Origin: a virus
Taxonomy: Duplodnaviria > Heunggongvirae > Uroviricota > Caudoviricetes
Reading direction: 5' to 3' (one strand)
DNA length: 12,969 bases
IMG/VR virus record: IMGVR_UViG_2602041671_000010
Shown: positions 2,885-12,706 of the stretch, in pieces
How the letters are laid out: every line of letters begins with the position of its first letter
How positions within the stretch are numbered: the stretch's first letter is position 1
Translations under genes and position numbers: made by a program
The notes under the pieces: generated by a model
Told to the model about the DNA's origin: nothing
Databases searched by the model: none
Seen by the model: only the letters and a program-made list of their open reading frames with translations

Positions 2885-3067
2885 TCAGCGATTGCGGAAA
2901 CATTCCATAACCTCGCGGTCACGGTCGGTTAATCGCTTCGCTGTGATGCGTTCTGCGCGTCCTGACGCTTTATCTTTATGCCCTGTTTCCTGTGTCTTCC
3001 ATGCGTCACGCTGCCTTATAAGTCCACGGATAAGGCGGTTTTGTTCCCGCTCATTCATCAGCGTCAT
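2885..3067 (-). CDS. small basic hypothetical protein (60 aa) between HNH and terS; may not be real
   Basis: ATG at 3067 in the frame of track ORF 2885..3289; highly charged helical-looking sequence; weak RBS; sits in a 245-bp HNH-terS gap that may instead hold a cos site. Confidence 0.3.
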   Translation of the reverse strand: MTLMNEREQNRLIRGLIRQRDAWKTQETGHKDKASGRAERITAKRLTDRDREVMECFRNR

Positions 3068-5904: not shown

Positions 5905-5933
5905 AAAACACTAAAGGGGCTTTTAAGCCCCTT
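5905..5933 (-). terminator. stem-loop between capsid and protease genes (GGGGC/GCCCC) with a U-rich tail; likely partial terminator or stabiliser
   Basis: Inverted repeat GGGGCTT/AAGCCCC at 5916-5931; on the minus-strand RNA it is followed by UUUAGUGUUUUAU. Confidence 0.5.
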
Positions 5934-5943
5934 CTGTATGCTG

Positions 5944-7100
5944 TTAATCGTCGTCCTGTGGCAGTTCCAGAATCTTGATCGCGTTCGAATCCACCACGCC
6001 ACCGCCTAAATATTTCTGCGTGAAAATTTTGATGAAGCCCGGCTCTGTGAGGTTGTCCGGTCTGGTGCGAACACCTGTTTCGTGATCAACAATGTAGTAA
6101 CCGCGCTTGAAGTCACCCAGGGCAATAACGTTATCAGGCATAAACTCCAGATATTCGACCGGAAGGCCCAGCAACGTATCAGGATCACCCGCCTGTAAAC
6201 GGTCGCGCCAGATGTAATCACCGTTCGCGTTCTTCACCTTCTGAAGTTTTGCCGCCGTCGTGGAGTTAACCACCCAGACCGCGTTTTTGCGGTATTTTTT
6301 ACGTAATGCAAATTTCAGGTCGATCAGCGGGTCCGCAGATGTCCACGCCAGAGATTCGGAAGGTTTAATTACCTGCAACGTACCAAAATCACGCTCTTTG
6401 TCGTTCTTCTCTGCACGGGGTACGGATAAAAAGCCTTTTGCTTTTTTGTCACCGTCGCCCACAACCAGATCGCTTTCTTCGGTTTCCGTGAAGGTGTCGC
6501 CAATCTCACCCGTCAGCCATGAAAGGATGTCCACATCGGAAAAATCCACGATTTCCTGTGTGGTGCGCGGGTACGCATAGACCGGATACAGCTTAATGCT
6601 CACCTCGTTAATCTGCGGGGTGCTGGTCTGTTCGCGTGCCTTACCCTCTTCACCGTGGTTAACGGTCGCACCGCCAGCGGAAACAAGCTGCTTAAACTCG
6701 TTGCTGCTGATTTTTTCACGGTACAGATGCGGCGCATGGTGGACTCATCCACCAGCATTCGCATGATTTCGGTGTTCAGTTCGGGGATAACGGTATAACC
6801 ACCATCAGCGGGAACGCCTGTACTTAATGCGCGGGTTTCACCTGTCAGAATGTAGCTGCGTAGTTCTGCGGGGTCAGTGGTCTGGCTGCTTTTACCTGGC
6901 TTGCTGCGCTCTTCGTCTGCAATGGCTTCAAGGCGGGAAATGTCTTTATCGAGGGATTCAGCTTTAGCGCGTAATTCGTCAAATTTTGCGCCCTCAGCAT
7001 CGTTAAGACTGCGGTTTTCTTTTTCCGCGTTCTCCAGCATGTCGCGCATCTGATTTTTAATGGCGGTTTTCTGCTGGCGTAATTCGATTATTCTCGGCAT
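5944..7100 (-). CDS. major capsid protein, HK97 fold, interrupted by a 1-nt frameshift in an A6 run (6711-6716); N-terminal coiled-coil delta domain
   Basis: N part (track ORF 6600..7145 from ATG 7100): coiled-coil then GETRALSTGVPADGGYTVIPELNTEIMRMLVDESTMRRICTV. C part (track ORF 5944..6603): my own translation of the same frame upstream of 6603 gives ISSNEFKQLVSAGGATVNHGEEG, continuing into LYPVYAYP...VVGDGDKKAKGFL, matching HK97-family conserved blocks. The two parts join if the run were A7. Confidence 0.8.
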
Positions 7101-7140
7101 AAAAAAAAGTCCTGGGGTTAAGTAAGGAACTCCAGGACGC
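7101..7140 (-). terminator. intrinsic terminator abutting the major capsid ATG
   Basis: Minus-strand RNA GCGUCCUGGAG-loop-CCCCAGGAC followed by U8, then AUG directly. Confidence 0.65.
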
Positions 7141-7321
7141 GGCAAAAACTCAACCGTTTTTCATAAGGGAATCAGCAATCGCACCGATCGTTTTCCCGCC
7201 TGGTAATGAATATTGGCGAGCACATTAACAGGCGGGAAAGTGGCCCCAGCGTCCTGGCACCACGGGCGAGAATAATCATGATTCAGTTCGGGTAAAATAT
7301 GCCGATCCGCTCAGTGAACAA
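7141..7321 (-). promoter_or_regulatory. candidate late promoter (-35 TTGTTC, 16-nt spacer, -10 TATTTT at 7294-7321) and roughly 185-nt structured leader
   Basis: Promoter-like hexamers read on the minus strand; leader contains an 11-bp stem (UUUCCCGCCUG/CAGGCGGGAAA) and a CCAGGACGC element complementary to the terminator 5' arm. Confidence 0.4.
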
Positions 7322-7360
7322 CGTGGAACAACCACGAACAAATAATTTACAAAAAATAAC

Positions 7361-7383
7361 AAAAAGCCGGATTGCTCCGGCTG
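7361..7383 (-). terminator. intrinsic terminator (GCCGGA-TTGC-TCCGGC plus U-run on the minus strand)
   Basis: Perfect 6-bp GC-rich stem with tetraloop; A5 on the plus strand equals a U-run 3' of the hairpin on the minus-strand RNA; downstream of ORF 7393..7617. Confidence 0.7.
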
Positions 7384-7392
7384 TATGGGTGC

Positions 7393-7617
7393 TCAGTCCC
7401 TGATCCCTTTCAGAAATTCTATCAATGCATCTGTCTGTTCAGGATTTACCGCCAGCATTTCACCGGATAGCGCGCAACGAACAAAACCATGATGATCCTT
7501 TTCAATCAGCGCCCCCGTTTCCAGGAATGCTCGGTAATCAGTGATGTTCATCGTCTCCATGTTGTCAGCATGGTATTTATCACGCTGTTTTAATATCTCA
7601 TCAAATTTCGTCGGCAT
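7393..7617 (-). CDS. hypothetical small protein (74 aa) in a terminator-insulated monocistronic unit
   Basis: ATG 7617 preceded by AGAGGA SD about 7 nt upstream; flanked on both sides by near-identical intrinsic terminators; no recognisable motifs. Confidence 0.6.
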   Translation of the reverse strand: MPTKFDEILKQRDKYHADNMETMNITDYRAFLETGALIEKDHHGFVRCALSGEMLAVNPEQTDALIEFLKGIRD

Positions 7618-7712
7618 TGTTTTTTCCTCTGTTGTGTCTGTTTGTTTCAGATAGTAACTATGCCGGACCGTGACGAAAAGCCAGTAGTGCGCCATACCAT
7701 TTCAAATGACGC

Positions 7713-7736
7713 AAAAAAAGCCGGATTGCTCCGGCT
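7713..7736 (-). terminator. intrinsic terminator, near-identical copy of the 7361..7383 hairpin
   Basis: AGCCGGA-TTGC-TCCGGCT with A7 on the plus strand (U7 tail on the minus RNA); downstream of ORF 7759..8007. Confidence 0.7.
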
Positions 7737-7758
7737 GCGTGGTGTGGTTCTGATATTC

Positions 7759-9000: not shown

Positions 9001-9203
9001 TCCTCACTCATGCTCACTTTTACACCTCACTTTTTAAAGCGTCTCGCTTCGTCTCAGTTGATATTTTTTGATGCTTTATGTGCGTGTTTCATAAGGATTT
9101 TTTTACTCCTCACTTTTGAGCATGTATACAGGTGAGAAAGTGAGTAATCGTGTTAATATTTTGTAAAAACCTCACCATTACTCACTTTTGCTACTCACTT
9201 TTT
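9001..9203. repeat. iteron array, putative replication origin
   Basis: Five direct copies of CTCACTTTT (9013, 9026, 9109, 9181, 9194), two extra CTCAC cores (9003, 9171), an inverted pair GTGAGAAAGTGAG (9132-9144) and an AT-rich stretch (9055-9105), immediately 3' of the replication gene stop. Confidence 0.6.
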
Positions 9204-11281: not shown

Positions 11282-11650
11282 GTTGGCAGCCTCCTCAGTG
11301 TGGTTAAGATAACCGCCACGCAAAAGGCTAATTTCGCTGGTGGCGGACTGTACAGGGTTAGCCTTACCGGACACTGAAGAAACCGGCGCGGATTGCTCCG
11401 CCCCCGTACAGCCCACCATTGATAAGGTGTGACTATGCGGCACAAAAAAACACGCGGGGCGCGTGCTGTGCGCTTCAGTTGTTTTCAGGAGGCTAATCCC
11501 GACACCCGTTTTATGAGGTGCGCGGGAATCATAGCTATTTTCGACACTGGCGATCAACTGGTTTTTTTCTCCGATATTCAGGGCCAGAAAACGCCACACA
11601 AAGGCAGTTTGTGTGTGTACAAGGTGTGGTATATGATTTACAGCAACCAT
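11282..11650 (-). CDS. Icd-like paralog 1; ATG 11650; no in-frame stop before paralog 2, so nominal product is the 187-aa read-through
   Basis: ATG 11650 with AGGAG SD 5 nt upstream; N-terminus LVHTQTAFVWRFLA parallels paralog 2; an intrinsic terminator-like hairpin (11441-11465) lies inside the reading frame. Confidence 0.4.
11441..11465 (-). terminator. terminator-like hairpin between the two Icd-like paralogs (CACGCG-CCC-CGCGUG plus U7)
   Basis: Minus-strand reading CACGCGCCCCGCGTGTTTTTTT; 6-bp stem with short loop followed by a T-run. Confidence 0.45.
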
Positions 11651-12482: not shown

Positions 12483-12508
12483 AATGTGTATATACACATA
12501 AACACATT
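12483..12508. promoter_or_regulatory. nested palindromic operator upstream of the second Arc-like gene
   Basis: 16-bp perfect palindrome ATGTGTATATACACAT (12484-12499) containing a TATATA -10-like element, flanked by outer inverted arms AATGTGT/ACACATT. Confidence 0.6.
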
Positions 12509-12526
12509 ATATGGAGTGTAATTGAC

Positions 12527-12706
12527 GTGTCAACACACAAAAATGAAAGGCGTGGTAATCCTCCTTTCCAGTTCCGTTTAGATCCTGACTTACGGGAAAA
12601 GATGGAAAAAGCACAACAACAAGACGGTGATGACTCTTTAGCAGCTTGGATAAAACGAATAATCCGAAAAGAATTACAGCAACGCGGTATTGAACCCAAA
12701 GAATAA
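12527..12706 (+). CDS. Arc-like ribbon-helix-helix repressor (59 aa, GTG start)
   Basis: Translation NPPFQFRLDPDLREKMEKAQQQDGDDSLAAWIKRIIRKELQQRG closely resembles the Arc repressor pattern (PQFNLRWPREVLDLVRK...); GGAG SD 10 nt upstream; 16-bp perfect palindrome just upstream; below the 60-aa cutoff so absent from the ORF track. Confidence 0.7.
   Translation: MSTHKNERRGNPPFQFRLDPDLREKMEKAQQQDGDDSLAAWIKRIIRKELQQRGIEPKE

Follow-up and report, generated by a model that had tools for sequence, protein, structure and literature searches.

The DNA considered here is a stretch of 12,969 nucleotides assigned to the Caudoviricetes (IMG/VR record IMGVR_UViG_2602041671_000010), referred to throughout as the window, and the element in question is the leader of its capsid gene, which lies within positions 7101–7321. 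By gene content the window is a capsid-forming phage-inducible chromosomal island (cf-PICI) of the type of EcCIEDL933, the cf-PICI prototype, present as the minus-strand copy with its genes read on the minus strand. The region of interest is identical to a locus of Escherichia coli 94-3024 between roxA and phoQ, which encodes int, an AlpA-type regulator, ash/icd, a RepA helicase, a single-stranded DNA-binding protein (SSB), PerC and a small hypothetical protein, followed by capsid, protease, portal, head closure, connector, HNH, TerS and TerL. A cf-PICI is defined as an element of about 15 kb that carries int, alpA and a replication module together with the genes from an HK97-type capsid to TerL, without tail or lysis genes, and this is the gene content of the RefSeq-annotated E. 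coli 94-3024 locus, on which it was judged. The leader is shared by O157:H7 strains at 98% identity, and the leader element was found in 360 of 5426 complete E. coli genomes. The cf-PICIs are unusual satellites in that they build their own capsids and release tail-less particles, and the control of their packaging operon is undescribed. Our analysis favours, with a probability of roughly 0.55, the reading that the region is the promoter-proximal leader of the cf-PICI capsid and packaging operon and encodes a four-segment cis-acting RNA switch, which probably acts as an on/off gate for capsid production.

The following features were read in the leader of the window, in the order of transcription; all free energies are for the predicted hairpins.

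7240–7263, minus strand: H1, the 5'-terminal hairpin (GUGGUG-CCAG-GACG-CUGG-GGCCAC; −15.6 kcal/mol), segments 1 and 2 of the putative switch
7249–7257, minus strand: segment a, CCAGGACGC, within H1 and including its GACG loop, the candidate antiterminator or anti-sequestor strand
7192–7239, minus strand: H2, a long hairpin (−22.6 kcal/mol) with 11 + 5 bp, a loop of 14 nt and 17-nt arms containing one mismatch
7141–7191, minus strand: linker, with a predicted small hairpin (7189–7170) and a mini open reading frame (mini-ORF) of four codons
7164–7150, minus strand: the mini-ORF AUG AAA AAC GGU UGA (AUG 7164–7162, UGA 7152–7150), ending 9 nt ahead of the H3 5' arm
7132–7140, minus strand: segment b, GCGUCCUGG, the 5' arm of H3 and the alternative partner of a
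7109–7138, minus strand: H3, the terminator/sequestor hairpin GUCCUGG...CCAGGAC (−13.9 kcal/mol)
7101–7108, minus strand: U8 tract directly after H3, the two having the make-up of an intrinsic terminator
7098–7100, minus strand: capsid start codon, directly after U8

The start codon at 7100–7098 is backed by the RefSeq annotation of the identical locus and by alignment of the capsid N-terminus with its relatives. An earlier reading of the DNA from its letters alone (the sequence-only reading) had placed an intrinsic terminator directly against the capsid ATG, and this arrangement is borne out: H3 is followed by U8 and U8 by the start codon, and the stem of 7 bp, of which five are G–C, with a further 3 bp past a mismatch, provides the G+C-rich stem and the U-run of at least five that characterize an intrinsic terminator. 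The apical region of H3 comprises 16 nt with an A–C mismatch, or an 8-nt loop if the three extra pairs form, compared with a canonical loop of 3–8 nt. The same reading saw no Shine–Dalgarno (SD) sequence ahead of the ATG, which needs correction: the 3' arm of H3, CCAGGAC (7115–7109), contains an SD-like AGGA (7113–7110) 9 nt upstream of the AUG, so that an SD-like element is present, yet sequestered. The 11-bp stem UUUCCCGCCUG/CAGGCGGGAAA proposed to lie between the complementary elements is real and forms part of the longer H2 hairpin, whose arms extend to 17 nt (7239–7192).

The central observation of the sequence-only reading, that 7257–7249 is complementary to the 5' arm of the terminator, is likewise confirmed, since segment a is a perfect 9-nt complement of segment b (7140–7132), with a duplex energy of −17.1 kcal/mol. 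The fold of the leader is more stable than expected from shuffled sequences (z = −4.95; none of 200 shuffles was equally stable). Dinucleotide shuffling of the 163-nt leader (2000 shuffles) produced perfect inverted repeats of 9 nt or more with P = 0.037 and of 11 nt or more with P = 0.0015, and repeats of both kinds are present in the real leader. The small hairpin and the mini-ORF of the linker have no support outside this lineage, and class I leaders (described below) have no counterpart of them; the mini-ORF has no SD, its frame is kept with other codons in the variant L025 and it is absent from the other leader classes.

Leader family and alternative pairing

Comparison with related loci places the leader of the window as a divergent member of a large family with a common layout: H1, a hypervariable but always paired H2, and H3 beside the start codon. 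At least 120 IMG/VR contigs contain the exact H1 core, in one copy each, and in 119 of the 120 it is located 120–146 nt upstream of the ATG of a related capsid gene, the remaining contig ending too soon. The largest group, class I, comprises 48 of the 78 distinct upstream regions and is ordered as H1 (GUGGCACUCAGACGUGAGCCGCCAC), a spacer of 0–3 nt, H2, a pyrimidine-rich linker ending in GCGCUGG, and H3 (GGUUUC[A]CGU...ACGGAAACC), with the AUG 5–6 nt beyond. In class I many unrelated sequences and shapes occupy the position of H2, and the 25-nt H1 is invariant while the related capsid proteins are only about 65–75% identical to the query capsid. When 85 distinct class I leaders were aligned to a covariance model, 97.4% of cells were paired, compared with 37–50% for slid controls, and compensatory changes were seen at all eight basal pairs of H2, with double changes at three of the nine pairs of H1. 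G–U pairs occur on the sense strand, which identifies the structure as that of an RNA transcribed in the same sense as the capsid gene.

No E. coli-type sequence entered the class I covariance model, whose only significant match in the window is to 7269–7083 (21.6 bits, E = 8e-5); H1 and H2 of the window line up in register with those of the model. The H1 of the window is homologous to that of class I and has the identical GACG loop, with an inner stem of CCAG/CUGG in place of CUCA/UGAG; the H3 of the window is too diverged to align to the model. Searched against Rfam 15 at E ≤ 1, the entire window matched C4 and isrK alone, both outside the leader, and a search with the leader alone at E ≤ 10 gave no match over H1–H3, either for the window or for a class I relative. 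In the phage division of GenBank the leader of the window has no match and the class I leader has three matches only, headed by a 16.5-kb cf-PICI-like 'phage'. The H1 sequence was not found in the literature searched, and neither a promoter nor a terminator of the packaging operon is discussed in the main cf-PICI papers. Judged from these comparisons, the leader is a previously undescribed, putatively cis-regulatory leader family specific to capsid operons of the cf-PICI type, and as such a candidate new RNA family for Rfam.

The complementarity between H1 and H3 is re-created in leaders of different sequence. In class I, the complement of UCACGUCU is AGACGUGA, made up of the last base of the inner 5' strand of H1, the loop and the greater part of the inner 3' strand, and because UCACGUCU overlaps the 5' strand of H3 the alternative pairing excludes H3; the conserved linker GCGCUGG lengthens the alternative helix to about 12 bp. 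In L069 and L086 one position is altered in all three partners, such that an A–U pair of H1 becomes C–G and a U–A pair of the alternative helix becomes G–C. In class II, to which the window belongs, the flanks of the shared GACG/CGUC core are wholly different and are again complementary (CCAG-GACG-C and G-CGUC-CUGG). In class III (Gilliamella type), which is unrelated in sequence, AGCGCAGAUAUG, located within the 3' strand of a long hairpin at the 5' end, is complementary to CAUAUCUCGCU, whose other partner is AGAUAUG, the start codon included. The minor classes represented by L046, L051 and L052 also show long-range pairing onto the ribosome-binding region. Although nothing within H1 pairs with the four bases of its loop, these bases do not vary in IMG/VR apart from a single variant, GACG to GGCG, which retains a G–U pair with b. 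The predicted H1-to-H3 complementarity thus covaries as a block across three sequence-distinct lineages, providing a clean natural example of block covariation over three pairing partners.

The H3 hairpin itself is also informative. In L024 and L095 a CC-to-UU change in the 3' arm keeps or extends the pairing through G–U and A–U pairs, giving 11 contiguous pairs, which is consistent with selection on an RNA hairpin. The U-run, by comparison, is confined to one lineage: among the 78 distinct leaders, U7–U8 directly precedes the ATG in all 14 distinct class II (E. coli/Shigella-type) leaders and in none of the 64 others (in L095 the run is C + U7). Termination therefore probably represents an addition in the E. 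coli/Shigella lineage, the core function of the family more likely being sequestration of the translation start, and the family-wide, ancestral output is probably translational; in the relatives without a U-run, occlusion of the start of translation is all that the predicted H3, or the class III analogue of it, could achieve.

The folding of the window RNA was modelled as an equilibrium ensemble at increasing nascent length, starting from 7263. H1 is dominant up to 130 nt; the long-range helix reaches a probability of about 0.98 at 133–147 nt, after b has been made and before the 3' arm of H3 emerges; and the combination of H1 and H3 has a probability of about 1 from 154 nt onward. At full length, the fold with H1 and H3 has an energy of −64.3 kcal/mol, compared with −55.8 kcal/mol when the alternative helix is enforced. 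Class I leaders show the same folding behaviour. The terminator/antiterminator pair envisaged by the sequence-only reading is therefore upheld as an alternative pairing that is kept in three lineages and is dominant in the predicted fold at intermediate length, but the comparison of the two energies supports the antiterminator only in nascent RNA and favours the terminator at full length. Within this model, such length-dependent folding is the signature of a kinetically decided attenuator with a closed end state, in which the open state would exist only co-transcriptionally or when stabilized.

Promoter, upstream region and other features of the island

For the promoter comparison, related capsid loci were taken from genomes and from IMG/VR, and the 330 nt upstream of each capsid ATG were compared. 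The features upstream of the leader are as follows.

7269–7274, minus strand: −10-like hexamer TATTCT, assigned by comparison with relatives, five nt ahead of H1
7291–7296, minus strand: candidate −35-like hexamer TTTACC, which aligns with TTTACA of L094; GTTTAC is conserved in type A relatives
7316–7353, minus strand: putative activator site array, roughly −90 to −54 relative to the presumed start, made up of TTTGTAAATTA and then three TTGTTC repeats
7365–7382, minus strand: intrinsic terminator of the upstream gene, AGCCGGAGCAAUCCGGCU plus a U-run, from a terminator scan; a second copy lies at 7736–7719
7396–7617, minus strand: phrog_1957 gene, shortly before the capsid promoter, with a product of 74 aa when counted from the annotated ATG

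A −10-like hexamer (TATCTT, TATGTT or TAAATT, and TATTCT in the window) is located 5–6 nt upstream of H1 in every leader class. In L094 the scanner calls TTTACA-16-TATGTT, which ends 5 nt before H1, and in the E. coli variant L095, in which homology to the window begins exactly at H1, the unrelated upstream sequence contains TTGCGA-16-TATAAT (10/12), which ends 6 nt before H1. From this comparison we infer that transcription starts at about 7263–7261 from a weak promoter, giving a leader of about 163 nt. This start displaces the promoter that the sequence-only reading had placed at 7294–7321 (TTGTTC-16-TATTTT), which scores only 7/12, has a −10 element that is not conserved and uses as its '−35' the third TTGTTC repeat; the leader length of about 185 nt derived from that promoter is shortened in consequence. 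In a few elements a promoter of this type is followed by a leader that is short and unstructured. An 11-nt perfect complement was also noted between the −10 region (7267–7277) and capsid codons 2–5 (7086–7096), pairing of which would bury the start region; it was set aside, as 7277–7267 lies upstream of the presumed start, so that only transcripts initiated further upstream would contain both strands, and the complementarity is not maintained in L002, L015 and L018.

The array upstream of the promoter consists of TTTGTAAATTA (7353–7343) and three TTGTTC repeats (7341–7316) with a 10-bp period. The exact TTGTTC triple repeat is unique in the window, with 0.01 expected by chance, and the TTTGTAAATTA/TTGTTC array is conserved upstream of related capsid genes. 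Phased TTGT arrays with the same 10-bp period also occur at both ends of the island, in the int–alpA spacer and upstream of the phrog_1957 gene, amounting to 11 phased sites where 0.14 are expected; on L001, a locus otherwise identical to the window, they are located at 1606–1639, 2973–3026, 9046–9079 (window 7619–7652), 16366–16389 and 16756–16779. These arrays may be the sites of one island protein, either a regulator of the AlpA or recombination directionality factor (RDF) type or the arm-binding domain of the integrase, and they link the capsid promoter to the sites of the recombination and regulatory proteins of the island. The phased repeats suggest that a DNA-binding protein of the island, possibly AlpA, controls the capsid promoter. 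An assignment to AlpA fits because alpA is reported to be required for induction and its overexpression to drive reproduction of EcCIEDL933.

The terminator at 7365–7382 is predicted to insulate the capsid promoter from upstream transcription. An identical 28-nt terminator sequence is present twice, at 7361–7388 and 7715–7742, bracketing the phrog_1957 gene, and since L014 and L016 have a single terminator and no phrog_1957 gene, the gene looks like a cassette that is gained or lost between the repeats. A phrog_1957 gene is present within 2.5 kb upstream at 47 of 77 loci with a structured leader, compared with one of 11 loci with other leaders. The protein has no Pfam, NCBIfam or PDB relative and no recognizable fold. 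In L094 (3190–3732), L033 and L034 a gene of the ProQ/FinO family is located upstream of the structured capsid leader, at the place of PerC in the window, and in L094 the phrog_1957 gene lies between this gene and the leader.

Several further features of the island were recorded. In the capsid gene, at about 6710–6716 on the minus strand, the window has a run of A6 where L001 has A7, and this 1-nt deletion shifts the capsid frame after about codon 130 to give a 166-aa product; the gene could be a pseudogene or the run slippery, or the difference could be a homopolymer sequencing error. In the capsid–protease gap, at 5913–5934 on the minus strand, a G+C-rich hairpin, GAAGGGGCUUAAAAGCCCCUUU, directly follows the capsid stop codon and is itself followed by a U-rich stretch; its counterpart, a GGGGC-tetraloop-GCCCC hairpin with a U-run, is kept in nearly all relatives and is probably a partial terminator or stabilizer that tunes the ratio of capsid to downstream products. 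The two Rfam matches mentioned above, C4 antisense RNA (11336–11423, minus strand; 75.4 bits) and isrK (11445–11521, minus strand; 61.8 bits), both exceed the gathering score and sit under an annotated 'ash family' pseudogene and upstream of icd; by sequence homology they indicate a putative RNA immunity module of the P1/P4 type in the satellite. About 1 kb upstream of these RNAs and in the same direction, at 12506–12533 on the minus strand, lies a perfect σ70 consensus promoter (TTGACA-16-TATAAT, 12/12).

The proposed switch and its alternatives

In the mechanism proposed here, transcription would start at about 7263 from the weak promoter, and an island protein such as AlpA would probably occupy the TTGTTC repeats upstream. 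In the OFF state H1 (7263–7240) and H3 (7138–7109) would both form, H3 would bury the SD-like AGGA, and H3 with U8 would end transcripts in vivo just ahead of the AUG. In the ON state CCAGGACGC, that is, the 5' strand and GACG loop of H1, would pair with GCGUCCUGG, the 5' arm of H3, and the resulting helix would enclose H2, block H3 and free the ribosome-binding region. As the ON helix is the most stable structure only in nascent RNA, the choice between the two states is probably kinetic. The loop of H1 may serve as the nucleation site of the long-range helix, and a factor that opens or holds H1 could act as the presumed trigger by biasing the choice between ON and OFF.

Several observations weigh against this switch. 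At equilibrium the leader is fully OFF, so that high expression of the capsid would need something further, and such a trigger was not found among the island RNAs, a leader peptide, ops, a Q-type pause or nut-like elements. In class I, H3 shows no double compensatory changes and varies only from U–A to U–G. Duplex statistics for H1 against the 3' region in single sequences are weak (z from −1 to −3.8), and the case for alternative pairing consequently rests on block covariation in few independent lineages, with about four independent covariation events in the alternative helix. The H3 of the window was not called by the terminator scan owing to its A–C mismatch and 16-nt apical region, the H3 of the near-identical variant L095 being flagged as terminator-like by the scanner. 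Finally, the frameshift in the capsid gene of the window means that this copy is possibly defective or not under selection, unless it is a read error.

The individual trigger candidates can be listed briefly. The C4-like and isrK-like RNAs of the island were considered as trans regulators, and their complementarity to the leader is not significant (z = −1.7 and −1.5, respectively); the only 10-nt complement of H1 elsewhere in the island (8279–8270) is at chance level. For control by RfaH through ops, GGCGGTAG is present in the leader of only one relative (L046) and absent from the other leaders; the same sequence is common in the coding DNA of these loci, with 116 matches against 58 expected over all loci. 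Attenuation through a leader peptide was discarded, the mini-ORF at 7164–7150 being neither conserved nor preceded by an SD.

A leader without any switching is unlikely, though it deserves the most attention among the alternatives: H1 would be a 5' stabilizer, H2 a spacer, and H3 with U8 a constitutive partial terminator or insulator that also dampens translation, and the complementarity of a and b would arise merely because CCAGGAC is shared by a and the 3' arm of H3. The population of only H1 and H3 at equilibrium, the modest single-sequence duplex z-scores and the second conserved hairpin with a U-run after the capsid gene, which would fit an operon that uses fixed attenuating hairpins, all agree with such a static leader. 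It does not account, however, for the re-creation of the a:b complementarity in class I, the L069 type, class II and class III, whose sequences differ, for the otherwise unpaired H1 loop being invariant in more than 120 contigs save for one change that preserves pairing, or for the conserved linker GCGCUGG that lengthens the alternative helix. Somewhat less likely still is a protein operator, a specific version of the switch in which an island or host protein binds H1 or H3 and sets the state; candidates are phrog_1957, the ProQ/FinO-like protein of some relatives and a capsid or scaffold protein on the island side, and Hfq, ProQ and CsrA on the host side. The invariance of the 25-nt H1 against the divergence of the capsids, the association of phrog_1957 with structured leaders and the ProQ/FinO-family gene at the phrog_1957 position in L094, L033 and L034 would be expected of an operator, but phrog_1957 has no recognizable fold or family and is absent upstream in about 40% of the structured-leader loci, and the invariance of H1 is explicable by each of its nucleotides having two pairing partners.

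The remaining alternatives involve the transcript or the polymerase in other ways, and are more improbable. The sequence-only reading had suggested that a helper phage switches on the head module by antitermination (of Q, N or a similar type), and the order of promoter, leader of about 160 nt and terminator does recall λ PR'–tR', with a terminator-like hairpin also present after the capsid gene; nevertheless, tail-less cf-PICI capsids are reported to be produced without a helper phage, which argues against a helper-encoded antiterminator as a necessary switch, overexpression of alpA is used to drive EcCIEDL933 reproduction, and most relatives have no terminator at this position. A λ-type late promoter and terminator under Q control likewise finds no support, the first 25 nt of the transcript containing no conserved −10-like, σ-dependent pause element; boxA and boxB are also absent, and we consider helper antitermination improbable. 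By analogy with HK022, H1 and H2 might instead form a put-like RNA that modifies RNA polymerase in cis for read-through of H3/U8 and the post-capsid hairpin, a possibility that we rate marginally lower. Two stem-loops totalling about 72 nt, 0–3 nt apart at the transcript 5' end, do resemble HK022 putL (PMC9378689), and terminator-like hairpins follow downstream in the operon, whereas put requires specific non-canonical pairs in stem II and H2 is hypervariable in sequence, length and topology; moreover, the best match of the family model in the HK022 early region is insignificant (6.9 bits, E = 0.41), and the conserved a:b complementarity would be left unexplained. The faintest of these prospects is that the terminated RNA of about 163 nt is a trans-acting small RNA, whose hairpin and U-tail could bind Hfq; its 3' end has the Hfq-type form and the element is widespread in E. 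coli genomes, but the U-run is limited to one lineage, the element directly precedes the capsid ATG in every case, and a search of the island gave no target complementarity.

Returning to the four-segment switch, the broader claim that it represents a new, widespread and self-contained class of RNA switch in phage satellites, in which a kinetic, loop-nucleated helix opens the capsid start and in E. coli also cancels a terminator, is put forward only tentatively. If this class is real, its candidate setters would be an island protein like phrog_1957, an RNA chaperone of the FinO/ProQ type or the speed of RNA polymerase, and cf-PICIs would possess a helper-independent, post-initiation checkpoint on the production of their own capsids. 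The leader offers a concrete, mutable element with which to approach how capsid synthesis stays silent and is then released.

Comparison with known systems

Focusing on phage systems, the put RNA of HK022 forms a pair of neighbouring stem-loops, about 70 nt in all, at the start of the transcript (PMC9378689). Conserved sequence and non-canonical pairs in both stems are characteristic of put, as is factor-independent read-through of terminators further downstream, which mutations in the zinc-binding domain of rpoC abolish. The cf-PICI leader likewise begins with two adjacent 5' stem-loops of similar total length; in contrast to put, it has a hypervariable second stem, and H1 has its conserved partner further along the RNA and not in RNA polymerase. 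No similarity of sequence or structure was found, the leader family model being without a match in the 24–32 kb region of HK022. In the λ PR'–qut–tR' region, a promoter-proximal leader of about 160–190 nt ends in an intrinsic terminator ahead of the late structural genes, and the layout in the window is comparable. Q-dependent late leaders of this kind are marked by a −10-like, σ-dependent pause element on the non-template strand within roughly the first 25 nt and by a Q-binding element in the promoter. The cf-PICI leader differs in that it has no conserved pause element (no conserved NANNNT is present in the invariant class I H1, and the window has only GACGCT), no Q gene is annotated on the island, the helper is not needed for expression and the terminator is absent in most relatives.

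Riboswitch platforms are comparable in that one hairpin serves as both terminator and SD sequestor and competes with an anti-terminator helix, and in that the conservation of the sequence is above that of the adjacent gene. No ligand-binding aptamer is recognizable in the leader, there is no Rfam match, and its conserved nucleotides are largely due to double pairing, although a ligand may also play a part. The leader of the MS2 maturation gene and the hok mRNA are examples in which kinetic, long-range pairing of the 5' region gates translation. As in these RNAs, a 5'-proximal segment of the cf-PICI leader is predicted to compete near the ribosome-binding site, with a transient active fold and a closed equilibrium fold, whereas the sequences, context and architecture are unrelated, a terminator is superimposed here in one lineage and the leader is not known to undergo processing.

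The trp, his and pyrBI leaders of enterobacteria are the classical four-segment transcription attenuators. They contain three mutually exclusive helices, namely 1:2, 2:3 (the antiterminator) and 3:4 (the terminator, with a U-run before the first structural gene), and the decision is taken on the nascent RNA. All three helices, including a 3:4 helix with a terminator, are found in the predicted folds of the leader in the window, in which H1 corresponds to 1:2, the a:b helix to 2:3 and H3 to 3:4. A translated leader peptide over segment 1, whose ribosome sets the fold in the trp type, was not found in the window; segment 1 begins at the presumed start of transcription, and the leader is therefore without a leader peptide, unlike the trp type. 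The 2:3 helix here also differs in spanning 108 nt and enclosing a large variable hairpin, and the 3:4 helix has no U-run in most relatives, so that it would act there on translation only. In conclusion, by analogy the logic of the cf-PICI capsid leader appears to resemble that of a trp-type four-segment attenuator without a leader peptide, and it also resembles kinetically gated translation of the kind known from MS2 and hok.

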